Shown: positions 1 to 43,385 of the stretch, piece by piece
Layout of the letters: each line of letters opens with the position of its first letter
Numbering within the stretch: position 1 is the stretch's first letter
Assembly (NCBI RefSeq): GCF_003991155.1
Contig: NZ_CP031293.1
Direction: 5' to 3' (one strand)
Length of the DNA stretch: 64,000 bases
DNA from: Escherichia coli
GTDB lineage: Bacteria; Pseudomonadota; Gammaproteobacteria; Enterobacterales; Enterobacteriaceae
Notes under the pieces: model-generated
Told to the model about the DNA's origin: nothing
The model's database searches: none
Seen by the model: only the letters and a program-made list of their open reading frames with translations
Translations under genes and position numbers: made by a program

Positions 1-249
1 TATTTTTAAAATTATGCCTAAGACTGAATAACTCGTTATATTTAAAACCGTTAGTAATAATTTTACGCCTTACTTTTTCCAGTTTCATTTATTATCACTC
101 CTTGAGATCTTTAAATTATTATAGTGTATTTTTTAAGTGAGTCAATGCATCAGAGAAAGATCATCAGAAGAACTCTTTTTGTACTAAATAATTCGCATTT
201 TATGTTTAAAAATTGAGATATTCCTCATTGTCTGAAGCTGTTTTTTATT

Positions 250-1450
250 GCTTATACATGATCAAATACTCCTTACATAATTAAGGAGAACAAAATGGAA
301 CTTAAAAAATTGATGGAACATATTTCTATTATTCCCGATTACAGACAAGTCTGGAAAGTGGAACATAAATTGTCTGATATTCTACTGCTGACTATTTGTG
401 CCGTTATTTCGGGTGCAGAAGGTTGGGAAGATATAGAGGATTTTGGGGAAACACATCTCGATTTTTTAAAACAATACGGTGATTTTGAAAATGGTATTCC
501 TGTTCACGATACCATTGCCAGAGTTGTATCCTGTATCAGTCCTGCAAAATTTCACGAGTGCTTTATTAACTGGATGCGTGACTGCCATTCTTCAGATGAT
601 AAAGACGTCATCGTAATTGATGGAAAAACACTCTGGCATTATTATGACAAGAGTCGCCGCAAGGGAGCGATTCATGTCATTAGTGCGTTCTCAACAATGC
701 ACAGTCTGGTCATCGGACAGATCAAGACGGATGAGAAATCCAATGAGATTACAGCTATCCCAGAACTTCTTAACATGCTGGATATTAAAGGAAAAATCAT
801 CACAACTGATGCGATGGGTTGCCAGAAAGATATTGCAGAGAAGATACAAAACAGGGAGGTGATTATTTATTCGCTGTAAAAGGAAACCAGGGGCGGCTAA
901 ATAAAGCCTTCGAGGAAAAATTTCCGCTGAAAGAATTAAATAATCCAGAGCATGACAGTTACGCAATGAGTGAAAAGAGTCACGGCAGAGAAGAAATCCG
1001 TCTTCACATTGTTTGCGATGTCCCTGATGAACTTATTGATTTCACGTTTGAATGGAAAGGTCTGAAGAAATTATGCGTGGCAGTCTCCTTTCGGTCAATA
1101 ATAGCAGAACAAAAGAAAGAGCCAGAAATGACGGTCAGATATTATATCAGTTCTGCTGATTTAACCGCAGAGAAGTTCGCCACAGCAATCCGAAACCACT
1201 GGCACGTGGAGAATAAGCTGCACTGGCGTCTGGACGTGGTAATGAATGAAGACGACTGCAAAATAAGAAGAGGAAACGCCGCAGAATTATTTTCAGGGAT
1301 ACGGCACATCGCTATTAATATTTTAACGAATGATAAGGTATTCAAGGCAGGGTTAAGACGTAAGATGCGAAAAGCTGCCATGGACAGAAACTATCTCGCG
1401 TCAGTCCTTGCGGGGAGCGGGCTTTCGTAATCTTTCCCTGGAGTGAGTAT
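250..1450 (+). mobile_element. ISAs1-family (H-repeat) insertion element; boundaries approximate
   Basis: Contains the H-repeat-associated transposase reading frame (295-1430); flanks are AT-rich non-coding DNA on the left and a 5'-truncated gene on the right. Terminal inverted repeats not mapped. Confidence 0.55.
295..1430 (+). pseudogene. ISAs1-family / H-repeat-associated transposase, frameshifted
   Basis: ORFs 295-879 ([18 protein letters not shown]...) and 819-1430 ([23 protein letters not shown]...) together match the ~378-aa H-repeat protein family (YhhI/YdcC type). The frame breaks in the A-run at 848-851 (caaaac), consistent with a 1-bp deletion. Confidence 0.8.
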
Positions 1451-1603
1451 TTTGATTTACTGAAATATCTTATTAGAAACGGATATATTGATGAAACATA
1501 TAATGACTATATAACATATTTCTATGAAAACAGTTTAAACCGGAGTGACAAAGCTTTTTTAAGAAGTATTTCCGATAAAAAAGGGAAAGATTTTTCTTAT
1601 GCT

Positions 1604-3448
1604 TTGAATAACCCCTCATTAATAGCAAGTCGATTACAACTTTATGATTATAGCCAGCAAGAAACGTTAAATTTTGATTTGTTGGATCACCTCTTGGATT
1701 CATTGACTCAACATACAACACAACTTAAGACATTTATATCTCAACTGAAAAAAGATAAAAATCTCCGATTTATTAAAGAGTACATGGACACTGAACGTAA
1801 TATTTCAAGGTTAATCCCTTTATTAAATCAGCAGTGGAGTGATTTTTTTCAATTGATGTTGAATGAAAAATTATATACACAACAACAAATAAAATCATAT
1901 TCCCTGGACAGTCTTTATTTTTCAAATCAAGACACTTTATTAAAAGTCAACCATAATGGCTGTCTATCACAGTATATATCTGAACATAAAACATATCTAA
2001 ATATAGAACAGCCTCAAATTCAAATGCTAATAGATAAGTTTAAATGTTTAGATATTTTATTTAAGAATTTATCATATAACAACTCAGAAGCATCTTTATT
2101 TTCAGCCGTATATAAAGAGTCACTTTATGAACTTAATTATCATAATTTAAAAGAGCTTATTTGCTATGAATACAAATGTGCAGACGAAGATAAAATCAAA
2201 CACCAAAACTTCACCATATTACTAAGCAATGCATCAACATATCTTTATAAAAAGATAGATAAAAATATCGAAAAATATATAGCTATAGTTCTCGAAAATT
2301 GTGAGAATAGTATAGCTGATGCTGAAAATGCAGTTGTTGTAATTATTAATAAATCAGGAATTGATGAGGAAATAAAAAAATCATACATAGCAAAACTCAA
2401 TAATAGATTGAGTGACTTAAGTAAAATAGATGAATCAAATATGTGGTCTTACTTATTAGACCAACGAAAAATAGAGTATACTGCTGAGAATATTATTTTT
2501 TATTTTTCTCAGCATAGTGAATTAGATGAAACAATAATTAAATTTATAGATAGCGAAAAATCTATTACACTAGACTATTATAGTGGGTTTACAGACGATA
2601 TCAAAGAGAGATTTTTCGACAAGGTCATCATTTGTGAACAAATTAGCGATAACAAATACTTCGAGATATTATCTTCATTAGACTATTGCTATGAATCATT
2701 TGATATATCCGGTTTGCAGGATGCGAAGATAAAAGTACTTATCGACACTAATATAATTCGAATGTCCATTCTGAATCTAGAGTTTCTAAGAACTACATAT
2801 CCTAATAACCTTATGCATTATATAAATAAAAATATAATCGACTATATTAAACTACAGACAGGTGAATCTGCTGTTAGTGACACAAATGAAATTTTGAACG
2901 TCTTAGAATTAGATATTGATGATTCACAAAAAGAAAAGCTATCAATGATAGTAGATACTCCAATCTCTATTCAAAATAATAAATACTCAACTCTCTTTAA
3001 GAAACACATCCTCACAAATAAATTAGATATAAATGACATCCCTTATCTCATAGAAAATTATGGCACATTAGTAGCACTTCAATCGACAATTCTAATCATT
3101 TTAAGTGGTCACGTCAATGAGGTAAAAGATCATGCTGATAAATTATCGATTAACTTGTTAGAGGTCTTAATAAAGGATGCTCATTTTATCCATGATGATA
3201 ATGTAGAATTATTTGTAAAGCAGATAACTAACATGAATAAAATACAAATCAAGAAGTTTCTAAAACTGATTAATTCTTCTGAGTTAACTATCTTATTAGA
3301 TAAAAAATTGGCATCGATAAAAATAAGCTCGTCTAATGAAAAAATACTTAAGAGTTTCATAACAAATGGATTAATAAAATCCTACAGCCAAAGTACTGAA
3401 GATCCTGAATCATACATAATAGATTTCCCTGAGGAGTTTCTTGATTAA
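1604..3448 (+). CDS. Hypothetical protein, very AT-rich (N/K/I/L-rich); reading frame is open upstream to 1358, so likely 5'-truncated by the IS
   Basis: 614-aa ORF starting at a TTG. The same frame stays open back through the 3' end of the ISAs1 element to a stop at 1355-1357. No recognisable motifs. Confidence 0.5.
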   Translation: MNNPSLIASRLQLYDYSQQETLNFDLLDHLLDSLTQHTTQLKTFISQLKKDKNLRFIKEYMDTERNISRLIPLLNQQWSDFFQLMLNEKLYTQQQIKSYSLDSLYFSNQDTLLKVNHNGCLSQYISEHKTYLNIEQPQIQMLIDKFKCLDILFKNLSYNNSEASLFSAVYKESLYELNYHNLKELICYEYKCADEDKIKHQNFTILLSNASTYLYKKIDKNIEKYIAIVLENCENSIADAENAVVVIINKSGIDEEIKKSYIAKLNNRLSDLSKIDESNMWSYLLDQRKIEYTAENIIFYFSQHSELDETIIKFIDSEKSITLDYYSGFTDDIKERFFDKVIICEQISDNKYFEILSSLDYCYESFDISGLQDAKIKVLIDTNIIRMSILNLEFLRTTYPNNLMHYINKNIIDYIKLQTGESAVSDTNEILNVLELDIDDSQKEKLSMIVDTPISIQNNKYSTLFKKHILTNKLDINDIPYLIENYGTLVALQSTILIILSGHVNEVKDHADKLSINLLEVLIKDAHFIHDDNVELFVKQITNMNKIQIKKFLKLINSSELTILLDKKLASIKISSSNEKILKSFITNGLIKSYSQSTEDPESYIIDFPEEFLD

Positions 3449-3492
3449 TGCTAATCTTTAACAAGATGTCATAAATACACTTCAACAAAGAA

Positions 3493-3528
3493 AAAACCAC
3501 CAGCATCTCAATTGCTGGTGGTTTTTCT
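3493..3528 (+). terminator. Rho-independent terminator downstream of the AT-rich gene
   Basis: aaaaaaccaccagcatctcaattgctggtggtttttc: GC stem ccaccagca/tgctggtgg followed by a T-run. Confidence 0.6.
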
Positions 3529-3577
3529 TCTCCTAATTATCAGGAATCACCTCACGTAGCGGTCGGATGCAGTAGAA

Positions 3578-3677
3578 AAATTGGTGGTCATTCTGGTGGT
3601 CTTGACAATCTCGATTTTTTGTTTTAGCTTACCAATCAGCCAGTTAATGGCTACGGCGATCCCAGTCAGAGGAGCCC
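3578..3677 (+). repeat. att-like repeat copy A (about 70 bp of island arm plus the last ~17 nt of tRNA-Asn)
   Basis: ttggtggtcattctggtggtcttgacaatctcgattttttgttttagcttaccaatcagccagttaatggctacggcgatcccagtcagaggagcc; the 3' end matches the tRNA-Asn acceptor/T-arm end (cagtcagaggagcc). Confidence 0.75.
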
Positions 3678-3683
3678 AATTTC

Positions 3684-3710
3684 TGAAAAACCCGCTTTTA
3701 TAGCGGGCTT
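3684..3710 (-). terminator. Hairpin terminator downstream of cbl
   Basis: cccgcttttatagcggg stem with flanking A/T runs, immediately 3' of the cbl stop on the minus strand. Confidence 0.5.
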
Positions 3711-3714
3711 TTCG

Positions 3715-4665
3715 CTATATCTGATAATCAATTTCCTCTTCACTGTTTTCCATCACCTGGCGCTTGATATCCTCAACTGACAGTCCTGCATTACAAAGTT
3801 CCAGAAAGCGCCAGACATAGTTACGTTGAAGTTGCCCTCGCTTCAGTCCCAACCAGACAGTATTAGCATCGAAAAGATGCCTCGTATCCAGACGGATTAA
3901 ATTCTTTTCCTCTTGTTCACCACTGGATTGTTCGGCAACTAATCCGATCCCCAGCCCAAGAGCAACATAGGTTTTAATGACATCAGAATCCTGCGCACTT
4001 AATACAATATCTGCCAGCAAACCTTTGCGGGCAAATGCGTCATCAATACGTGAGCGCCCCGTAATCCCCTGTCGGTAAGTAATTAACGGCCACTTCGCTA
4101 TTGATTCCAGCGTCAACGGTGTAATTTGCGTCAAGGGATGATCGAGTGGAACAAGCAAACTATGGTGCCAACGAAACCACGGGAAGGCGACGAGCTGCGG
4201 GTCATTACTCAAACGCTCGCTGGCGATACCAATATCAGCTTCGCCATTTTGCAACAACGTCGCAATTTCCTGTGGTGTACCCTGGATTAGCTCCAGCCGA
4301 ACCTCCGGGAAAAGTTCGCGAAAAGCTTTAATGACCTCAGGCAAGCTATAACGTGCCTGAGTATGCGTCGTTGCAATAGTGAGAACGCCAGACGTATCGT
4401 TGGTAAACAGGTCTGCAAGCCGACGAACATTACTGGCTTCATTCAGAATACGTTCTGCAATGACCAGTAATGCTTTGCCCGGTTCAGTCATGCCCAGCAG
4501 TCGCTTACCTCGTCGAACAAATATTTCGATGCCAAGTTCATCCTCCAGTTCCCGAATATGACGGCTAACGCCTGACTGTGAGGTAAAAAGCATATTCGCA
4601 ACCTCTGTCAGGTTGTAATCCTGACGTGCAGCCTCGCGGATTATCTTTAGTTGTTGGAAATTCAC
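3715..4665 (-). CDS. cbl: LysR-family regulator Cbl (CysB-like)
   Basis: 316-aa ORF MNFQQLKIIREAARQDYNLTEVANMLFTSQSGVSRHIRELEDELGIEIFVRRGKR...; N-terminal HTH plus LysR substrate-binding region; sits next to nac as in E. coli. Confidence 0.85.
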   Translation of the reverse strand: MNFQQLKIIREAARQDYNLTEVANMLFTSQSGVSRHIRELEDELGIEIFVRRGKRLLGMTEPGKALLVIAERILNEASNVRRLADLFTNDTSGVLTIATTHTQARYSLPEVIKAFRELFPEVRLELIQGTPQEIATLLQNGEADIGIASERLSNDPQLVAFPWFRWHHSLLVPLDHPLTQITPLTLESIAKWPLITYRQGITGRSRIDDAFARKGLLADIVLSAQDSDVIKTYVALGLGIGLVAEQSSGEQEEKNLIRLDTRHLFDANTVWLGLKRGQLQRNYVWRFLELCNAGLSVEDIKRQVMENSEEEIDYQI

Positions 4666-4766
4666 GGTAAACTCCGGGCAGTTCAGATATCCCGTTATTG
4701 TTAAAGTCTAATGCCCGGCATAACAAATAATAAAAACCCGCATCTTATTCCATCCCGATATAACGC

Positions 4767-5684
4767 TTAGCTCACCAATTGCCACTGCCTTTTTTCCATC
4801 ACTGGAGAATTCATCACTGACATTAACAACTCTTTCACTGCTTGCGCCTGTGGTGATAAGTTCGCTCTGGCGGGTAAATTTAATGACAAAGAGAGACTCA
4901 TGGAAGGAGTGGTAATGCGTGACATCCAACCATTTACTGCGCCACATAACGAACGCGCGGCCGATTCGGGTAATACTGCAACGCCCATGCCGCTGGCAAT
5001 CGCTGCGGTAAGCGTGGCAATAGACTCAATTTCACCAATGACTTTTGCCGTGAGTCGCCGTAGGGAAAAAGCCTCATCAACACGAAGTCTAATAGCACTG
5101 TAATCACTTGGGAGAAAAAGGTTCATTTGCGCAATAGCATTAACATCAACGCTTTGCCCCGGGCAATCTTGAGTTCCTACCAGAAAAAGATCTTCTTTCA
5201 GTAAAGCCTGACTGGATACACCAGCCACAGGGGAATGCTCATAAATCACCGCCATATCGAGTTGGTGATTTATCAGTTTTTCGTTAAGTACTGCACCGCT
5301 ATTTTCATGAAGATAAATAACGACCTCCGGGAATTCAGCGCGAACCGCCTGTAATAAGGGCATGGTGATGGATGACGCAGCGGTTCCTGGCGCAAAGCCA
5401 ATCGAGACTTGCCCCGATAATGCCTGACCAACGTTATGCACCGCCAGTTGGGCCTGCTCACACTGACGTAAAATGGCCCGCGCATGGGTATAGAGAATTT
5501 TTCCGGCGTCAGTTGGCGTAACACCCCGTTTTGTGCGAATCAAAAGTTGTTGATTTAACTCACCTTCCAGTGTGGCAACCTGCTGACTGAGCGCTGGTTG
5601 TGCGATATGCAATACTTCAGCAGCCTGGGTCAGGCTACCAATATCTACAATTTTTACGAAGTATTTCAGGCGTCTGAAGTTCAT
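4767..5684 (-). CDS. nac: Nitrogen assimilation control protein Nac (LysR family)
   Basis: ORF 4767-5714; likely start at MNFRRLKYFVKIVDIGSLTQAAEVLHIAQPALSQQV... (5684); LysR HTH. Confidence 0.85.
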   Translation of the reverse strand: MNFRRLKYFVKIVDIGSLTQAAEVLHIAQPALSQQVATLEGELNQQLLIRTKRGVTPTDAGKILYTHARAILRQCEQAQLAVHNVGQALSGQVSIGFAPGTAASSITMPLLQAVRAEFPEVVIYLHENSGAVLNEKLINHQLDMAVIYEHSPVAGVSSQALLKEDLFLVGTQDCPGQSVDVNAIAQMNLFLPSDYSAIRLRVDEAFSLRRLTAKVIGEIESIATLTAAIASGMGVAVLPESAARSLCGAVNGWMSRITTPSMSLSLSLNLPARANLSPQAQAVKELLMSVMNSPVMEKRQWQLVS

Positions 5685-5961
5685 GTTGCCTCCGGTTTTT
5701 AAGAATCGGCCCAAGTGCCGCCATTACTTACAACCAGATTGCAAGATGCTTGCCAGTTTTATTTTGGCGTTGATGTACAAGCTAACCAACTGTCAAATAA
5801 GAGATTATGATAGTTTTGTCACTCGATCTTTTTATTAGAACTCGCGTTCTCTGCCCCAAGACATAAAGGTATGCACCACGATGGTTCATTACCAAAAAGA
5901 TTGAAAGCTCACCATTTTGTCGAAATTGGCAGCAAACAAACAAAAAAATGCATTTCACCCT

Positions 5962-5990
5962 TTGACATCACCATGCACTGCCATTAATAT
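5962..5990 (+). promoter_or_regulatory. Sigma70-like promoter for tRNA-Asn
   Basis: TTGACA (5962-5967), 17-bp spacer, TAATAT (5985-5990), about 18 bp upstream of the tRNA 5' end. Confidence 0.55.
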
Positions 5991-6008
5991 GCGCCCCGTT
6001 CACACGAT

Positions 6009-6084
6009 TCCTCTGTAGTTCAGTCGGTAGAACGGCGGACTGTTAATCCGTATGTCACTGGTTCGAGTCCAGTCAGAGGAGCCA
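6009..6084 (+). tRNA. tRNA-Asn (GTT anticodon)
   Basis: tcctctgtagttcagtcggtagaacggcggactgttaatccgtatgtcactggttcgagtccagtcagaggagcca; 76 nt, anticodon loop ctGTTaa. By recalled K-12 layout this is asnT-like by its downstream context and asnV-like by its upstream context. Confidence 0.95.
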
Positions 6085-6226
6085 AATTTTAGTCTTGAGA
6101 CATCTCTATAAGTCTCAGGATAGTTAAAAAACAAGAACTTATCTTTACCCGGTTGTCTCGCAAGAGGCTGCTGGGTTTCTTGACATCCATAGTTTTTAGG
6201 GGCCTAATCAGGGGCCTCACGGTTCG

Positions 6227-7513
6227 GTGAGCAAACGGAGCCCCCACGCTATGGCATTAACAGACACCGCTATTCGCAAGACTAAACCCTCTGACAAACC
6301 CTTCAAAATGACGGACAGTTCTGGACTGTACCTGTTGATCAAACCTAACGGCTCAAAACTCTGGTATATGAAGTACCGCATCGACGGCAAAGAGAAGAAA
6401 CTGGCCTTTGGCCCCTACCCGGAGATCTCCCTGTTGCAGGCTCGCCGCCTGCGCGAAACAGCACGCAATAACATTCATGCAGGCGTCGATCCGGCTGCGG
6501 TGAAGCAAACCGAGAAACAGAAGAGGAAAAACGGGCAGACGTTCAGCCAGATCGCCATCAACTGGCATAGCGAGCATAAACGCTGGTCTGAGCATTACGC
6601 GAAAACGGTTATGCGCAGGCTGGAAATGTACGTTTTCCCGGATATCGGGGATCGCCTTATCGAGGAGATCGAAACGGAGGATTTGTTATTCACGTTGCGC
6701 AAGGTAGAGAGTAAAGGCTTTCTGGAAATCACCGCGCGGCTGAAAAACTACGTCACCGATATCATGCACTACGCGATGAAAAAGAAACTGCTCAAAGCGA
6801 ACCCGGCGCTGTATCTGGACGGTGAGTTTGCCGCGCCAGAAACCAGTCACTACCCGGCCCTGTCGCTGGACAAATTGCCTGAGCTTTTAACCCGGACGGA
6901 TAGCTACTGCGGCAGGCTGCTGACAAAATACGCGCTTAAGCTGTCGCTGATTTTTTTTGTGCGCTCCAGCGAACTACGCTTTGCGCGCTGGAGTGAGATC
7001 GACTGGCAGCAGAAGTTATGGATAATCCCGGAAGAGCGCGAACAGATCGAAAACGTGCGCTTCTCTTACCGGGGGTCGAAAATGAAAATCCAGCACATTG
7101 TGCCGCTGTCGGATCAGGCGATTGCGATACTGAAACAGATCGAGGCCCTCTCCGGGCATCTGGCCTTTATTTTTCCCGGCGAATACGACCAGGACAAGTG
7201 CATGAGCGACAACACCGTCAACAAGGCGCTGCGCGTGATGGGTTACGACACCAAAAAGGATATCTGCGGGCATGGCTTCCGGGCAATGGCCTGTAGTGCG
7301 CTGAGCGAATCGGGATTATGGAGCAAAGAAGCCATTGAAAAGCAGATGAGCCACCAGGAAAGAAACAGCGTCCGTGCTGCCTATATTCACAAGGCTGAAT
7401 ATCTGGAGGAACGGATCGAGATGATGCAGTGGTGGTCAGATTATCTTGATGCAAACAGTGACGGGTATGTCTCGGCTTACCAGTATGCCCGCCGCCTAAA
7501 ACAGGCGTCGTAA
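6227..7513 (+). CDS. P4-type tyrosine integrase, island-associated
   Basis: 428-aa ORF directly 3' of tRNA-Asn. C-terminal ...HGFRAMACSALSESGLWSKEAIEKQMSHQERNSVRAAYIHKAEYLEERI... carries the catalytic H-x-x-R ... Y region. Possible alternative start at MALTDTAIRK (6251). Confidence 0.85.
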   Translation: MSKRSPHAMALTDTAIRKTKPSDKPFKMTDSSGLYLLIKPNGSKLWYMKYRIDGKEKKLAFGPYPEISLLQARRLRETARNNIHAGVDPAAVKQTEKQKRKNGQTFSQIAINWHSEHKRWSEHYAKTVMRRLEMYVFPDIGDRLIEEIETEDLLFTLRKVESKGFLEITARLKNYVTDIMHYAMKKKLLKANPALYLDGEFAAPETSHYPALSLDKLPELLTRTDSYCGRLLTKYALKLSLIFFVRSSELRFARWSEIDWQQKLWIIPEEREQIENVRFSYRGSKMKIQHIVPLSDQAIAILKQIEALSGHLAFIFPGEYDQDKCMSDNTVNKALRVMGYDTKKDICGHGFRAMACSALSESGLWSKEAIEKQMSHQERNSVRAAYIHKAEYLEERIEMMQWWSDYLDANSDGYVSAYQYARRLKQAS

Positions 7514-7636
7514 GTTAACAAAGCATCAGAGGGGGAAAAGGTATATTCCCCCTTTGTGCGTTTCAAATGTCGATGCTGACTGTAGCTTTTAAACTAAATT
7601 ACTGGATAAAAAGTAGCTTTTAAGCTACTATCTTTT

Positions 7637-7954
7637 ATGAAAACGATAAAGACCTACATAACTGCCGACGGGCGAGATCTGTATGCAGAGTTTTTTAAAG
7701 GGTTACGCGACCCCATCGCGAAGGCAAAGATCGCTTCCCGGATCAACCGGATGGCTTCGGACAATTTTGGCGACCATAAGCCCTGCCGGGAAGGTGTCTG
7801 GGAACTCAGGATAGATCAAGGGGCTGGGTATCGGGTTTATTACAGCCTGGTGGATGGAGAAGTCGTCCTGTTGATTCTGGCTGGCGACAAGCGTACGCAG
7901 GATGCAGATATAGATGAGGCTATTCGCTGCCTCAAAGACTATTTGAAGAGGTGA
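7637..7954 (+). CDS. Type II toxin, RelE/ParE superfamily (addiction module killer protein)
   Basis: 105-aa ORF MKTIKTYITADGRDLYAEFFKGLRDPIAKAKIASRINRMASDNFGDHKPCREGVWELRIDQGAGYRVYYSLVDGEVVLLILAGDKRTQ...; upstream of and 3 nt from an HTH antitoxin gene. Confidence 0.7.
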   Translation: MKTIKTYITADGRDLYAEFFKGLRDPIAKAKIASRINRMASDNFGDHKPCREGVWELRIDQGAGYRVYYSLVDGEVVLLILAGDKRTQDADIDEAIRCLKDYLKR

Positions 7955-13992: not shown

Positions 13993-15244
<1,252 letters not shown>

Positions 15245-15252
15245 CCACTACA

Positions 15253-16841: not shown

Positions 16842-16928
16842 CATTCTGGTGGTCTTGACAAACTCGATTTTTTGTTTTAGCTTATCAATCAGCCTGTTAA
16901 AGGCTAAGGCGATCCCAGTCAGAGGAGC
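16842..16928 (+). repeat. att-like repeat copy B (island right end next to yeeJ)
   Basis: aaaaaggtggtcattctggtggtcttgacaaactcgattttttgttttagcttatcaatcagcctgttaaaggctaaggcgatcccagtcagaggagc; sits where asnT lies in recalled K-12 order (about 250 bp upstream of yeeJ). Confidence 0.75.
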
Positions 16929-17168
16929 AAAATTCTAAAAATTCGCTTTTTTAGCGCAATATCACTGACCTTAGTTGAGCATTGCTTTTTAATGGATAGC
17001 GGGTTTTTGACATCTTAAGCGCCCTCGACCTTTATGGTTGAGGGCGTTTTGCTATGAACGCCATCACCATTTTCCCCTCGATTATAAAACTTGAGTAATT
17101 CAGTAGTCTCCCCTCTTGCAACTCACACCCAAAACTGCTTAACGAAAAGTTATTAATTTTCAATCATA

Positions 17169-25223
<8,055 letters not shown>

Positions 25224-25483
25224 TTTTCCGCTATAATTTCTTAAAGAGTGCTCCATTCGGGGCACTCTTTTTTACATTCCCTCTACAGAACTTGCCCTTC
25301 TCTCACAGAAAATGAATAAATAAAAATGCGATACCGCCAGATTCGCGTTCGGTGTGACTATGGTTGTATCCGGTGAGTACAGCTTTGATCCAAAGGCTGG
25401 CTTCTGTGATGATTAACCAGCCTCAGGGTATTGATGACACCACCGTTCATAACAGATCGGCATTACTTTGCATACGTACTGCT

Positions 25484-26599
25484 TCATATTCTCGCCAAAA
25501 CACTTTTTAATGCCTTTGCGAATTCATCCAGACTTATATTGTCAATTTTTTGCCCAACGACGACTGACTCCGAAACATCGGCCATTGCTGGCCATCGCGT
25601 TTTGTAATCAGCATAAATTGCAACAACGGGGGTATTATAGGCACTTGCCATATGTAATATTGAGGTGTCAGGAGTTATTGCGATATAAGCATCTTTTATG
25701 ATTGCTGCTGAACGTTTAATCGAGGGTGATAAGGATAAACGGTAGACATTATTATAACAATCCACTAACACCCTGGCTTTTTCTTCCCCTTTTGGTCCAT
25801 GAACGATCACTATTGGTATATCTGTTTCACTTTGAATTTTTTCTATTATATTTTCTGCAATCGATAATAAAAATGTACGTTCCTGCGAGCTACCTTCTAA
25901 ATTAAGCGCAATGTAAGATCCTAACGATCGCATTTCCTCGCGCACCTCATCGAGTACATCCTTACTTAGTGGCAATTCATATATTGGCCTGACTGCTGGA
26001 AAACCCGCCTCACGCATCATAAATGCCCATGTCATGGGCACAGGAGCCCGGAGATTCTGATCCATCCGGGACGCGCTCTTACACAAAGGGGAATAGCACT
26101 TCATGGTTAAACCAACAACCTGAAAATTCGTTTTTGCTTTCAACTGACTGATAAATATCATCGTTTTCAGGTTCTTTTTACGCATCGCCTCTATACAAAG
26201 ATCCGGCGTACCGTATTGCTGTGTTATGTTCTTCGCTAAATCTTTTATTTCTTTTAATGTTGCGTGATCCTGCATAGTCATTGTGACTAATGTTAATTTA
26301 GTCTGTTCAAGTTTGAGCGCGTTAAAGACTTCTAAATTAATTGTCGACGTAACAATTAAAAGATGCTTAATTTTATGCAATTCAAGCGCCCTAATAACTG
26401 GAAAGATGGCCATAGCATCGCCAATCTGATCGGGAATATGGATAACAACAAACTCTGTTTTTTCAATATTGAAATTAAAAGCTTTATAATCGTAGTAACT
26501 AAATGCAATACGTCTCAACAATGATGCTAAAAACATAACTAACCCCGCTTCCCTACTGGTTATAATGCAATGCAGTTTATCAGACTCATCAGGGCGCAA
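25484..26599 (-). CDS. yeeL: Glycosyltransferase family 9 (heptosyltransferase-like)
   Basis: 371-aa ORF at the yeeL position downstream of yeeJ; appears uninterrupted here. Probable start at MFLASLLRR. Confidence 0.6.
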   Translation of the reverse strand: MRPDESDKLHCIITSREAGLVMFLASLLRRIAFSYYDYKAFNFNIEKTEFVVIHIPDQIGDAMAIFPVIRALELHKIKHLLIVTSTINLEVFNALKLEQTKLTLVTMTMQDHATLKEIKDLAKNITQQYGTPDLCIEAMRKKNLKTMIFISQLKAKTNFQVVGLTMKCYSPLCKSASRMDQNLRAPVPMTWAFMMREAGFPAVRPIYELPLSKDVLDEVREEMRSLGSYIALNLEGSSQERTFLLSIAENIIEKIQSETDIPIVIVHGPKGEEKARVLVDCYNNVYRLSLSPSIKRSAAIIKDAYIAITPDTSILHMASAYNTPVVAIYADYKTRWPAMADVSESVVVGQKIDNISLDEFAKALKSVLARI

Positions 26600-26850
26600 T
26601 TTTGTGCATATGCGGACTTTTATGTTTCATATCTCGAATCTGTGGATCCTCTGCTTAATCCTTAAACAACACCAGCAACTCCTGCGCTTTCATCTACCAT
26701 CGAATTTTTCATGTTGCCGTTAATCAGCCATAAAATCATTTGCAGATGCGCTCTGTCGAGGTAGTCTCATAAGGTTCGTTTATAGATCGACGGCAATGTG
26801 AGTTACCTTTTCCATACTAATTATAAAAAGACAGTACAAACAGGATCATT

Positions 26851-28167
26851 ATGGACTCCACGCTCATCTCCACTCGTCCCGATGAAGGGACGCTTTCGTT
26901 AAGTCGCGCCCGACGAGCTGCGTTAGGCAGTTTCGCTGGTGCCGTCGTCGACTGGTATGATTTTTTACTCTATGGCATTACCGCCGCACTGGTGTTTAAT
27001 CGCGAGTTTTTCCCGCAAGTAAGCCCGGCTATGGGAACGCTCGCCGCATTTGCCACCTTTGGTGTCGGATTCCTGTTCCGTCCGCTCGGCGGTGTCATTT
27101 TCGGTCACTTTGGCGACCGACTGGGACGTAAGCGCATGTTAATGCTGACCGTCTGGATGATGGGTATCGCGACAGCCTTGATTGGTATTCTTCCTTCATT
27201 CTCGACTATTGGGTGGTGGGCCCCCATTTTACTGGTGACGCTGCGTGCCATTCAGGGATTTGCCGTCGGCGGCGAATGGGGAGGCGCGGCGTTACTTTCC
27301 GTTGAAAGTGCACCGAAAAATAAAAAAGCCTTTTACAGTAGCGGTGTACAAGTTGGCTACGGAGTAGGTTTACTGCTTTCGACAGGACTGGTTTCATTGA
27401 TCAGTATGATGACGACTGACGAACAGTTTTTAAGCTGGGGCTGGCGGATTCCTTTCCTGTTTAGCATCGTACTGGTACTGGGGGCATTGTGGGTGCGTAA
27501 TGGCATGGAGGAGTCCGCGGAATTTGAACAACAGCAACATAATCAAGCGGCCGCGAAAAAACGCATCCCGGTTATCGAAGCACTATTACGACATCCCGGT
27601 GCTTTCCTGAAGATTATTGCGCTACGACTGTGCGAGTTGCTGACGATGTACATCGTTACCGCCTTTGCACTTAATTATTCAACCCAGAATATGGGGTTAC
27701 CGCGCGAACTTTTCCTTAATATTGGTTTGCTGGTCGGTGGATTAAGCTGCCTGACAATTCCCTGTTTTGCCTGGCTTGCCGATCGTTTTGGTCGCCGCAG
27801 GGTTTATATCACAGGCGCGTTGATCGGAACGTTGAGCGCATTTCCTTTCTTTATGGCGCTTGAAGCACAATCTATTTTCTGGATAGTTTTCTTCTCCATA
27901 ATGCTGGCAAACATTGCGCATGACATGGTGGTGTGCGTGCAACAACCGATGTTTACCGAAATGTTTGGTGCCAGTTATCGCTATAGTGGCGCTGGAGTCG
28001 GATATCAGGTTGCCAGTGTGGTTGGCGGTGGATTTACACCTTTTATTGCCGCTGCACTCATCACTTACTTTGCCGGGAACTGGCATAGCGTCGCTATTTA
28101 TTTGCTGGCTGGATGCCTGATTTCCGCAATGACCGCTTTGTTGATGAAAGACAATCAACGCGCTTAA
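26851..28167 (+). CDS. shiA: Shikimate transporter, MFS family
   Basis: 438-aa ORF with 12 predicted hydrophobic spans; MFS signature GHFGDRLGRKR; conserved position. Confidence 0.85.
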   Translation: MDSTLISTRPDEGTLSLSRARRAALGSFAGAVVDWYDFLLYGITAALVFNREFFPQVSPAMGTLAAFATFGVGFLFRPLGGVIFGHFGDRLGRKRMLMLTVWMMGIATALIGILPSFSTIGWWAPILLVTLRAIQGFAVGGEWGGAALLSVESAPKNKKAFYSSGVQVGYGVGLLLSTGLVSLISMMTTDEQFLSWGWRIPFLFSIVLVLGALWVRNGMEESAEFEQQQHNQAAAKKRIPVIEALLRHPGAFLKIIALRLCELLTMYIVTAFALNYSTQNMGLPRELFLNIGLLVGGLSCLTIPCFAWLADRFGRRRVYITGALIGTLSAFPFFMALEAQSIFWIVFFSIMLANIAHDMVVCVQQPMFTEMFGASYRYSGAGVGYQVASVVGGGFTPFIAAALITYFAGNWHSVAIYLLAGCLISAMTALLMKDNQRA

Positions 28168-28268
28168 TAGCCTGGCGAAGATCATCCGATCTTCGCCTTA
28201 CACTTTTGTTTCACATTCCTGTGACATACTATCGGAAGTGCGGTAATTGTATGGAACAGGAGACACAC

Positions 28269-29723
28269 ATGAATAATAAGGGCTCCGGTCTGACCCCAGC
28301 TCAGGCACTGGATAAACTCGACGCGCTGTATGAGCAATCTGTAGTCGCATTACGCAACGCCATTGGCAAATATATTAGAAGTGGCGAATTACCTGATGAA
28401 AACGCCCGCAAACAAGGTCTTTTTGTCTATCCATCACTGACCGTAACCTGGGACGGTAGCACAACCAATCCCCCCAAAACGCGCGCATTTGGTCGTTTTA
28501 CTCACGCAGGCAGCTACACCACCACGATTACTCGCCCTACTCTCTTTCGTTCGTATCTTAATGAACAACTTACGTTGCTGTATCAGGATTATGGTGCGCA
28601 TATCTCGGTGCAACCCTCGCAGCATGAAATCCCTTATCCTTATGTCATCGATGGCTCTGAATTGACACTTGATCGCTCAATGAGCGCTGGGTTAACTCGC
28701 TACTTCCCGACAACAGAACTGGCGCAAATTGGCGATGAAACTGCAGACGGCATTTATCATCCAACTGAATTCTCCCCGCTATCGCATTTTGATGCGCGCC
28801 GCGTCGATTTTTCCCTCGCGCGGTTGCGCCATTATACCGGTACGCCAGTTGAACATTTTCAGCCGTTCGTCTTGTTTACCAACTACACACGTTATGTGGA
28901 TGAATTCGTTCGTTGGGGATGCAGCCAGATCCTCGATCCTGATAGTCCCTACATTGCCCTTTCTTGTGCTGGCGGGAACTGGATCACCGCCGAAACCGAA
29001 GCGCCAGAAGAAGCCATTTCCGACCTTGCATGGAAAAAACACCAGATGCCAGCATGGCATTTAATTACCGCCGATGGTCAGGGTATTACTCTGGTGAATA
29101 TTGGCGTGGGACCGTCAAATGCTAAAACCATCTGCGATCATCTGGCGGTGCTACGCCCGGATGTCTGGTTGATGATTGGTCACTGTGGTGGCTTACGTGA
29201 AAGCCAGGCCATTGGAGATTATGTACTTGCACACGCTTATTTACGCGATGACCACGTTCTTGATGCGGTACTGCCGCCCGATATTCCTATTCCGAGCATT
29301 GCTGAAGTGCAACGTGCGCTTTATGACGCTACCAAGTTAGTCAGCGGCAGGCCCGGAGAGGAAGTTAAACAGAGGCTACGTACTGGCACTGTGGTAACCA
29401 CAGATGACAGGAACTGGGAATTACGTTACTCAGCTTCTGCACTTCGTTTTAACTTAAGCCGGGCCGTAGCAATTGATATGGAAAGTGCAACCATTGCCGC
29501 GCAAGGATATCGTTTCCGCGTGCCATACGGGACACTACTGTGTGTTTCAGATAAACCGTTGCATGGTGAGATTAAACTTCCCGGTCAGGCTAACCGTTTT
29601 TATGAAGGCGCTATTTCCGAACACCTGCAAATTGGCATTCGGGCGATCGATTTGCTGCGCGCAGAAGGCGACCGACTGCATTCACGTAAATTACGAACCT
29701 TTAATGAACCGCCGTTCCGGTAA
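28269..29723 (+). CDS. amn: AMP nucleosidase
   Basis: ORF 28113-29723; likely start at MNNKGSGLTPAQALDKLDALYEQSV (28269), giving about 484 aa. Confidence 0.85.
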   Translation: MNNKGSGLTPAQALDKLDALYEQSVVALRNAIGKYIRSGELPDENARKQGLFVYPSLTVTWDGSTTNPPKTRAFGRFTHAGSYTTTITRPTLFRSYLNEQLTLLYQDYGAHISVQPSQHEIPYPYVIDGSELTLDRSMSAGLTRYFPTTELAQIGDETADGIYHPTEFSPLSHFDARRVDFSLARLRHYTGTPVEHFQPFVLFTNYTRYVDEFVRWGCSQILDPDSPYIALSCAGGNWITAETEAPEEAISDLAWKKHQMPAWHLITADGQGITLVNIGVGPSNAKTICDHLAVLRPDVWLMIGHCGGLRESQAIGDYVLAHAYLRDDHVLDAVLPPDIPIPSIAEVQRALYDATKLVSGRPGEEVKQRLRTGTVVTTDDRNWELRYSASALRFNLSRAVAIDMESATIAAQGYRFRVPYGTLLCVSDKPLHGEIKLPGQANRFYEGAISEHLQIGIRAIDLLRAEGDRLHSRKLRTFNEPPFR

Positions 29724-29784
29724 TAAGTTCTGTTCCTTTTTATCAGGAATAGATGTGAAGGATTTAGTAAGTCATCCAGCAAAT

Positions 29785-29812
29785 AGCCTGCAATAAAGCA
29801 GGCTGTTTGCTT
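29785..29812 (+). terminator. Rho-independent terminator after amn
   Basis: agcctgcaataaagcaggct hairpin followed by gtttgctt. Confidence 0.5.
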
Positions 29813-30064
29813 CCTGGGGCGGATACGAGTTTTATTATAGCCTTAATGATTTCCATATATTAAAAGCAAGTATGCTTTCAAAACACAATTATAAAAAAAT
29901 CCGCCAACGACATTAGTTTTTATGAGATTAAATATAATATTATGGCTTTAGAATATTTTTATTTCTAATAGACGAGATTTTTCCTGTTATGATATAATAT
30001 GCCGAATTAACACATGTTAACGATTTACCAGTAATGTAAATAAATTTTCGAGGAGATCATTCCA

Positions 30065-30781
30065 GTGGGACGTAAATGGGCCAATATTGTTGCTAAAAAA
30101 ACGGCTAAAGACGGTGCAACGTCTAAAATTTATGCAAAATTCGGTGTAGAAATCTATGCTGCTGCTAAACAAGGTGAACCCGATCCAGAATTAAACACAT
30201 CTTTAAAATTCGTTATTGAACGAGCAAAGCAGGCACAAGTTCCAAAGCATGTTATTGATAAAGCAATTGATAAAGCCAAAGGCGGCGGAGATGAAACGTT
30301 CGTGCAGGGCCGTTATGAAGGCTTTGGTCCTAATGGCTCAATGATTATCGCCGAGACCTTGACTTCAAATGTTAACCGTACGATTGCTAACGTTCGCACA
30401 ATTTTCAATAAAAAAGGCGGCAATATCGGAGCGGCAGGTTCTGTCAGCTATATGTTTGACAATACGGGTGTGATTGTATTTAAAGGAACAGACCCTGACC
30501 ATATTTTTGAAATTTTACTTGAAGCTGAAGTTGATGTTCGTGATGTGACTGAAGAAGAAGGTAATATTGTTATTTATACTGAACCTACTGACCTTCATAA
30601 AGGAATCGCGGCTCTAAAAGCAGCTGGAATCACTGAGTTCTCAACAACAGAATTAGAAATGATTGCTCAATCTGAAGTTGAGCTTTCCCCAGAAGATTTA
30701 GAAATCTTTGAAGGGCTTGTTGATGCCCTTGAAGATGACGACGATGTTCAAAAAGTTTATCATAACGTCGCAAATCTCTAA
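30065..30781 (+). CDS. yeeN: YebC/PmpR-family transcriptional regulator
   Basis: 238-aa ORF with GTG start: [27 protein letters not shown]... Confidence 0.85.
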
Positions 30782-31238
30782 TTATATTTTAAAGAAATCT
30801 GTCTTTATGGCAGATTTCTTTAATCTCATATAATTCTTATAAAGAATATAATATCCAGCTCGTCATATTGATTATAAAACCCACGCTCCCAGAGAAATAA
30901 TATTTATTAAAATTCCAGGCCTTCTTTTTCTGATTACAGAAGGCAAAGTGGCAATTACGTATAGTTTCCCGATAAAGACGTGACAGCAACATCCCGCATA
31001 AGGCATTTTTCTCTTTATCTTTGTACGGTGCTTCATGGAACAGAGTTTTTGACCTTGCGAATCGTGATGTCTGTTGGGGGGCAATTTGCTCACTGAAGCG
31101 TGAGACTCGATTAAGCACACGAAACACAGAAATCAAAAAACCCGGTCACTTTTTTACAAGGTAACCGGGTAAAAATGATTTTATTTTTTAACTGTCTTGA
31201 GACTCATAGAGATGTCTCAAAACTAAAATTTGGCTCCT

Positions 31239-31338
31239 CTGACTGGGATCGCCGTAGCCTTTAACAGGCTGATTGATAAGCTAAAACAAAAAATCGAGTT
31301 TGTCAAGACCACCAGACTGACCACCATTTTTATTAGCG
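31239..31338 (-). repeat. att-like repeat copy C (tRNA-Asn 3' fragment plus island arm) bounding the defence-like cassette
   Basis: Minus-strand reading: tggtggtcagtctggtggtcttgacaaactcgattttttgttttagcttatcaatcagcctgttaaaggctacggcgatcccagtcagaggagccaaa. The adjacent 31196-31238 matches the hairpin downstream of the tRNA at 6085-6120. Confidence 0.75.
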
Positions 31339-41303: not shown

Positions 41304-41763
41304 AGTTTTTTATTCTGTCTGGCTAACTCATATAGTTGTTCAGTGATGACCTTTTTATCATAGCCTGCATTTGTTAAGATTTTTCTTAGGTCATCTATAT
41401 CCCTTTTCAAATATTGTTCTTTTGTCAAACCTCGAACAAATGCTCGTCTGAATGTCCAGGTAAGAGCATGTAAATCTTTACGCAGATTTATCGTAATTCC
41501 CTTACATTTTGTTGTGGGGCTTACCGCATCCTGAATGGCATGATGAGGTGTATGAGTTGCATTAAGCCCTGTTTTACCATTCGCATAAATTGAAGAACCA
41601 TATGTACCAACGTATAAATCTTCTCCTGGACCAGCTAACAATCCCAAGGGATCAATCCATACCAGTGGATTTGGAGCGTAATTGTAAAGGTTTACTCCCC
41701 CCGACAGTCCAATCGGATCAGCACACAGATACTGTCCTGTCTCGCAATCATAGTACCGGAACC
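41282..41763 (-). pseudogene. Rhs C-terminal fragment A, truncated at its 5' end by IS3 copy 2
   Basis: ORF 41282-41812 runs into the IS; ...YRFRYYDCETGQYLCADPIGLSGGVNLYNYAPNPLVWIDPLGL then a unique ~130-aa tip. Confidence 0.8.
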
Positions 41764-43013
<1,250 letters not shown>

Positions 43014-43016
43014 CCA

Positions 43017-43385
43017 CTACAATGAGAGCATAAGTACACCTGCCGTCATTTCTGGTACGGCAACGCCCCCCGGTGTATAAGCTGTCCCGTTAATGATGAT
43101 GTCACAGGCGGGTTTCAGGGGGGCGAGGTCGCTTTCGCGCAGTACCGGAGATGTGTTCATCTCCCCGGCATACTCATCTTCCACACACAGCGGTAGCGGC
43201 GGGTTTTCGATAAGTTGGGTTTGCCACTGACCATTTTCGTCCCGTTGCAGCCGGAAGCCCGTTTTCATGGCGATAACGCGGTGACGTTCGCTATGTTTAT
43301 CATCCATCGCATATTCTATCGCTGAAAACGGCGTCAGGTTACGAAATTCCATATTGCACCCCGATCCCGTCTGTACCTGTCGCAA
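43017..43385 (-). CDS. Hypothetical 121-aa protein (possible effector-associated adaptor); last codons now replaced by IS sequence
   Basis: MEFRNLTPFSAIEYAMDDKHSERHRVIAMKTGFRLQRDENGQWQ...; the reading frame runs 5 nt into IS copy 2. Confidence 0.5.
   Translation of the reverse strand: MRQVQTGSGCNMEFRNLTPFSAIEYAMDDKHSERHRVIAMKTGFRLQRDENGQWQTQLIENPPLPLCVEDEYAGEMNTSPVLRESDLAPLKPACDIIINGTAYTPGGVAVPEMTAGVLMLSL

Follow-up and report, generated by a model that had tools for sequence, protein, structure and literature searches.

A 64,000-nt stretch of Escherichia coli DNA (contig NZ_CP031293.1, assembly GCF_003991155.1; here called the window) carries, near its beginning, an H-repeat insertion sequence (IS) that is followed by a long and very AT-rich open reading frame (ORF) lying ahead of the gene cbl. 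The locus raises two questions: from which gene does this reading frame stem, and does it still have a function? The region 1442-3448 (plus strand) corresponds to the 3'-terminal 54% of a chromosomal tmn gene, which codes for a transmembrane NTPase of the Tmn/YobI family. We predict with considerable confidence that this IS-truncated tmn remnant is a relic, most likely recent, that is silent or functionless.

The 3' part of a tmn gene beside cbl

Within the remnant, the longest ORF that has a start codon begins with TTG and extends from 1604 to 3448 (plus strand, 614 aa). Its frame is open in the 5' direction as far as 1364, being closed by an in-frame stop at 1361-1363; an initial reading of this DNA from the sequence alone (the sequence-only reading) had placed the limit at 1358, which overshoots by 6 nt. 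Neither ATG nor GTG nor TTG occurs in this frame between 1364 and 1604. RefSeq/PGAP assigns a shorter coding sequence (CDS) that starts with ATG (1784-3448, plus strand, 554 aa, WP_223718429.1) and is annotated as 'hypothetical protein'. The GC content of 1442-3448 is 27.7%, compared to 47.4% for cbl-nac and, likewise, for the whole window. The residues encoded by the remnant are mainly Leu (12.7%), Ile (11.7%), Ser (9.6%), Lys (9.1%), Asp (7.9%) and Asn (7.9%). The first 3.7 kb of the window are 100% identical to several complete genomes, e.g., that of strain 2016C-3878.

The translation of 1442-3448 and residues 575-1242 of WP_000235887.1, a protein of 1242 aa, can be aligned without any gap (661 of 668 residues identical, 99%). 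At the DNA level, identity to the 3' part of the intact gene is ~97%, which includes the downstream flank. The remnant thus consists of codons 575-1242 and the native stop codon, and both annotated or predicted starts (TTG at 1604 and ATG at 1784) correspond to internal codons of intact tmn. The intact gene (3.7 kb) is annotated in recent RefSeq releases as 'YobI family P-loop NTPase'. Its product matches Pfam domain PF20693 (YobI-ATPase) at residues 53-423, covering model positions 1-363 of 363 (E 1.1e-113), and the PADLOC profile for Tmn (E 5.2e-61), the best stretch being residues 247-489. A Walker A motif (GPYSAGKS) is found at residues 73-80 and a Walker B-like segment (VIVFED) near residues 267-272. 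Of two hydrophobic segments, the one at 201-219 is pronounced (Kyte-Doolittle 2.19), while that at 151-169 is weaker (0.88). All of these motifs and segments are encoded before the break at residue 575, Walker A and the hydrophobic segments even before residue 230. In the remnant, the highest hydropathy value (1.51) is reached within a solenoid helix. A sequence search of PDB with the full-length allele gave no match.

When searched alone, the remnant has no significant match in Pfam (none below E 0.02), NCBIfam or PADLOC, which accounts for its annotation as 'hypothetical protein'. Profile searches, as proposed along with the sequence-only reading, were therefore uninformative in these databases, and it was DNA synteny with other E. 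coli genomes that provided the identity. The remnant was modelled as an all-alpha solenoid (AlphaFold2 pLDDT 89), with fold matches restricted to HEAT/ARM-like structures.

Tmn has been published as an antiphage defence system that consists of a single gene. In a 2026 preprint (PMC13001434), it is described as a membrane-anchored decamer with two transmembrane helices within the NTPase domain, and with arms composed of a 'proximal arm', which is a coiled coil, and a 'distal arm', an alpha-solenoid that is ARM/HEAT-like. Binding of RIIB from phage T2 to the arms is reported to trigger ATP turnover, Mg2+ export and plasmolysis, while distal-arm-only fragments bind RIIB weakly (PMC13001434). Judged from the model, the remnant is roughly the all-alpha, ARM/HEAT-like 'distal arm' of Tmn, which in the full-length protein is reported to have a share in trigger binding. 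Because the C-terminal arms of Tmn are reported to bind the trigger and to determine specificity (PMC13001434), the earlier suggestion of a sensor-like remainder of a larger accessory protein was to the point; the larger protein is a Tmn/YobI-family transmembrane NTPase, and the part that remains is modelled as an alpha-solenoid.

The parent protein resembles Tmn in its length of 1242 aa, its Walker A motif, the hydrophobic segments within the NTPase domain and its alpha-helical C-terminal arms. It also has the complete domain of Bacillus subtilis YobI and Pfam PF20693 (YobI-like P-loop NTPase), which the window lacks entirely. The window copy has retained a helical C-terminal arm and is orthologous to a full-length member of the family that occupies the same locus in the intact genomes. 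It has neither the NTPase domain nor the two transmembrane helices, and the PADLOC profile does not match; it is therefore to be considered a fragment of a Tmn/YobI member rather than a member. Since the NTPase domain, the membrane segments and the proximal arm are missing from its sequence, it is not expected to be a functional Tmn. The KAP-family NTPases (e.g., PifA) and the Avs/STAND proteins are built on the same general principle, in which a helical-repeat sensor for a phage protein is attached to an NTPase core (PMC13001434), and the remnant corresponds to the sensor part. Compared to the Tmn copies on F plasmids, the parent allele shows ~26% identity, confined to residues 25-624, and its best match in the plasmid collection is a Fusobacterium record (35%). 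On the basis of these identities, the parent allele appears to represent a divergent chromosomal clade of the Tmn/YobI family.

The distribution of the gene was analyzed by a DNA search with 1441-3500 against 5,426 complete E. coli genomes. The remnant sequence is present in 44 of these, always as a single copy and always on the chromosome. The intact form of 1242 aa occurs in 14; a search of related genomes for the uninterrupted gene had been proposed along with the sequence-only reading. The N-terminal half of tmn is found in the same 14 genomes only, and none of them has an IS at the junction. The other structure (flank, IS and remnant) is identical in 30 genomes, with essentially identical copies. 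No genome in this set has this allele with a natural start near codons 575-690 and no IS. Small 5' indels are present in two of the 14 alleles counted as intact (L003 6367-10008, and NZ_AP027156.1, hit H88). One shows a 1-bp length difference, with the start annotated 29 codons later, and the other a difference of 7 bp. Some full-length tmn copies may thus be damaged themselves.

The H-repeat junction

The element at 151-1441 (plus strand) is a full-length H-repeat/ISEc1-type IS of the ISAs1 family. It is 97% identical, over 1266 bp, to an intact ISEc1 copy. Its ends are defined by two independent IS copies; a comparison with an independent ISEc1 copy, located 2.6 kb further upstream on the same chromosome, gave the length of 1291 bp. 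Terminal inverted repeats are recognisable. The left inverted repeat has diverged (CAGAGAAAGATCA...), while the right one ends with ...CTTTCCCTGG at 1441 (reverse complement CCAGGGAAAGATTACG). RefSeq names the gene of this element, which lies upstream of the remnant, 'ISAs1 family transposase'; it is frameshifted (ORFs 295-879 and 819-1430). The element is like other H-repeat (H-rpt)/ISEc1 copies in its length, its terminal inverted repeats and its position at the tail of an Rhs locus. It differs from them by the frameshifted transposase, the diverged left inverted repeat and the absence of a target-site duplication, the left flank (GTCAATGCAT) being distinct from the right flank (AGTGAGTATT).

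Homology to tmn starts at 1440-1442, which is exactly the terminus of the IS. This indicates a genuine transposition into codon 574/575 and bears out the view that a very AT-rich gene has been truncated at its 5' end by the H-repeat. The 150 bp to the left of the IS (1-150) are non-syntenic and show no similarity to the intact tmn locus. According to the annotation of a matching genome (NZ_CP029747.1), they are the end of a region associated with Rhs proteins and the type VI secretion system (T6SS): a complete T6SS cluster is followed there by an array of Rhs/PAAR effectors, to whose tail this segment belongs. Just upstream of this segment, NZ_CP029747.1 has a gene for a DUF4225 protein and a second ISEc1 copy. 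If the two flanks come from different loci, by IS-mediated deletion or recombination, a target-site duplication is not to be expected, and its absence fits a recombinant or deletion-associated H-repeat copy.

The sequence-only reading had correctly assumed that the original N-terminus is lost; it had, however, spoken of a replacement. The transposase ends at 1428-1430 and its frame differs from that of the remnant, so that a fusion of the two is impossible. The N-terminal part has been deleted or separated, not exchanged. A simple insertion, with the N-terminal half of tmn still located upstream of the IS, was also considered. It was rejected, since the left flank is unrelated and the N-terminal half is absent from all 30 truncated genomes. 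We suggest that the IS inserted at codon 574/575 of tmn, and that a single subsequent recombination or deletion mediated by the IS would have eliminated codons 1-574 together with the promoter, as well as the Mokosh gene and the integrase genes that accompany tmn in intact genomes. With codons 1-574, the protein would have lost Walker A, the Walker B-like segment, the coiled-coil proximal arm and both hydrophobic segments (near 151-169 and 201-219).

Relic or functional gene

Defence is abolished in Tmn mutants affecting Walker A or the proximal arm (PMC13001434). The remnant has no NTPase domain, no membrane anchor, no inherited start and no promoter signal above chance, and it should therefore not confer Tmn defence. 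Promoter-like sites number 18 in this AT-rich DNA, while 13.2 +/- 3.3 are expected by chance. No Shine-Dalgarno sequence is evident from reading the sequence before the TTG at 1604. Compared to the intact allele, the remnant has 7 non-synonymous and 3 synonymous changes (ratio of the respective rates, dN/dS, ~0.55). When polarized with outgroups, three of the seven amino acid changes are derived in the window, while the rest are ancestral or ambiguous. As there are only 10 changes, dN/dS says nothing in either direction about selection. That 30 near-identical copies share one junction is in line with a single recent event rather than with selective maintenance.

Several points weigh against a functionless relic. 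The frame has no internal stop and no frameshift over 2 kb. It has kept its native stop codon and, downstream of it, a terminator-like G+C-rich hairpin with A and T runs alongside (3491-3527), which is conserved after the intact gene. PGAP still calls a CDS of 554 aa. Expression may occur if the AT-rich DNA happens to contain a promoter, or if the IS provides read-out. In addition, the mechanism attributed to this allele is an analogy drawn across clades, because identity to the plasmid-encoded Tmn copies (presumably the clade that was studied experimentally) is ~26% and concerns the N-terminal half only.

The undamaged frame with its stop codon and hairpin, together with a solenoid fold that is confidently predicted to be autonomous and the recurrence of Tmn-like ORFs restricted to the C-terminal region (Klebsiella P0003; L006/L007), would also suit a remnant that is expressed as a soluble alpha-solenoid of 554-614 aa and has kept an independent function. 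Such a protein might sequester the phage trigger, in the manner of a decoy or sponge, or it might modulate another Tmn or exert a dominant-negative effect on it. We consider this improbable. The first in-frame start is a TTG without an evident Shine-Dalgarno sequence, neither promoter nor start is inherited, promoter-like sites do not exceed the chance level and the 30 copies trace to one junction; furthermore, distal-arm-only fragments bind the trigger weakly, and those C-terminal-only ORFs with a readable context are either one half of a frameshift-split gene or lie among fragments of other defence genes. It is tempting to speculate, more broadly, that the recurrent arm-only ORFs are exapted sensor arms, used as soluble solenoids that bind a phage protein or that disturb or tune a full-length Tmn, but the prospects of this idea are poor. 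A complete and naturally short gene that merely shares a domain with Tmn is what the RefSeq CDS at 1784-3448 would imply. This is contradicted by the 1242-aa gene that occupies the same place beside cbl in the intact genomes, whose 3' part is 99% identical at the protein and ~97% at the DNA level, and by homology that continues for 342 nt upstream of the ATG at 1784, up to the IS end; it is also at odds with the homologues described below, and is thus very unlikely. The adjacent Rhs/T6SS element, finally, could have contributed the ORF as cargo, e.g., as an orphan toxin or immunity module brought in with the H-repeat. H-repeats are typical companions of Rhs elements, and the IS and everything to its left represent an Rhs/T6SS tail. 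To the right of the IS, however, the window is collinear with the tmn-cbl region of intact genomes, the att-like end included, and the 99% match to tmn residues 575-1242 leaves no space for sequence of the Rhs type; the remnant has no Pfam match either. This origin is hardly credible.

Among the 120 homologues listed, nearly all of those longer than ~860 aa carry PF20693. For two shorter homologue ORFs, the context was examined, and no natural short form (an intact homologue starting at the equivalent of 1604) was found. Thus, among the C-terminal-only ORFs checked, there are no intact short homologues devoid of an extra N-terminal domain, in agreement with the truncation proposed from the sequence alone. 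An ORF of 783 aa (L008-L010) is the downstream half of a gene that is split by a frameshift in an A-run, with an ORF of 418 aa carrying PF20693 located 14 nt upstream. This metagenomic Tmn homologue (L008 4730-8352, also L009 and L010) is 56% identical in the NTPase part. The 783-aa product is identical on nine contigs, and the three loci that were read represent three samples. The split could be a sequencing artefact, or else it could reflect programmed slippage or a pseudogene that has become fixed. A metagenomic ORF of 719 aa (L006/L007; L006 4860-8160) is also C-terminal-only, its start corresponding to residue 530. The preceding ORF (391 aa) is chimeric, consisting of a C-terminal piece of an AAA-ATPase and a piece of a type III restriction enzyme; the locus has the appearance of a further defence locus in decay, a 'graveyard' where pieces of defence genes have collected. 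Natural stand-alone arm genes were considered as an explanation and rejected, since the cases checked are either a frameshift-split half (L008-L010) or are found beside chimeric fragments (L006/L007). A further C-terminal-only ORF is encoded on a complete chromosome of Klebsiella pneumoniae (P0003; 581 aa, 78% identical, start near the equivalent of residue 662).

The tRNA-Asn island and its decay

In intact genomes, the gene order is asnU, two integrase genes, a gene for an MkoC-like protein, tmn, an att-like repeat of ~100 bp, the genes for PtuB and PtuA, the repeat again, cbl, nac and asnV. The MkoC-like protein (1197 aa) matches Mokosh type II (E 5.5e-92), and PtuB/PtuA, which constitute Septu, have matches with E 2.8e-127 and 2e-293. 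Septu is bracketed by two of the ~100-bp repeats (L002 10147-10244 and 13927-14024), each of which ends in the 3' end of tRNA-Asn. In the window, there is one hybrid copy of this att-like island-end sequence (3576-3677, plus strand, ~100 bp), and the Septu module is absent. Septu may either have been inserted as a separate att-flanked module or been lost by recombination between the repeats. The location of Tmn beside Septu in intact genomes matches the synergy of Tmn with Septu type I that has been published (PMC13001434).

Positions 3662-3676 (CCAGTCAGAGGAGCC) represent 15 nt within the last 16 of tRNA-Asn, only the terminal A being absent. A direct repeat of the tRNA 3' end is expected at one end of a tRNA-Asn-integrated island, with the integrase beside the tRNA at the other, and the repeat found here agrees with the earlier view that the distal end of an island is closed by an att-like repeat. 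The right boundary of the island is marked by cbl (3715-4665, minus strand), the first backbone gene, which is syntenic with the intact genomes. The neighbours on the right side (att-like end, cbl, nac, tRNA-Asn) are common to the window and the intact genomes. Only this right end is contained in the window, while the asnU-integrase end is seen exclusively in intact genomes. In the lineage of the window, T6SS/Rhs DNA has taken the place of the left part of the island. In an Rfam scan of 1-6300, tRNA-Asn was the only match.

The region to the left of the IS can be read from NZ_CP029747.1 (1566000-1608600; L005, L011). It comprises a complete T6SS cluster, a PAAR/Rhs effector, and several orphan Rhs-core/immunity modules, with ISEc1 copies interspersed. 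The T6SS cluster is anchored at asnT by a P4-type integrase. An integrase-RelE segment of the T6SS region is duplicated within the window at 5985-7806 (98% identity). The remainder of the window (5985-64000) carries tRNA-Asn genes at 6009 (plus strand), 49266 (minus strand) and 51090 (plus strand), a block from yeeJ to yeeN at 16915-31246, and IS3 copies at 13995-15252 and 41763-43021. The order around the four asn tRNA genes is non-standard, with the block [tmn'-cbl-nac-Asn] located ahead of [yeeJ...yeeN-asnW-yeeO-asnU]. Islands carrying integrase and Rhs sequences are found at the junctions of these blocks. This order is consistent with recombination among tRNA-Asn/att sites, or with an excision followed by re-insertion at such sites.

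An IS-truncated defence gene in a decaying island beside cbl is an ordinary outcome and does not challenge current understanding. The value lies in the annotation: a RefSeq 'hypothetical protein' that goes unrecognised by Pfam, NCBIfam and PADLOC is a Tmn relic, and censuses of defence systems would neither count the remnant nor flag the lost system. In work on trigger binding by Tmn, the natural 575-C fragment could serve as a ready-made 'distal arm only' construct. For E. coli, the locus illustrates that a tRNA-Asn defence island with Mokosh II, Tmn and Septu decays via an Rhs-associated H-repeat in ~0.6% of the complete genomes.

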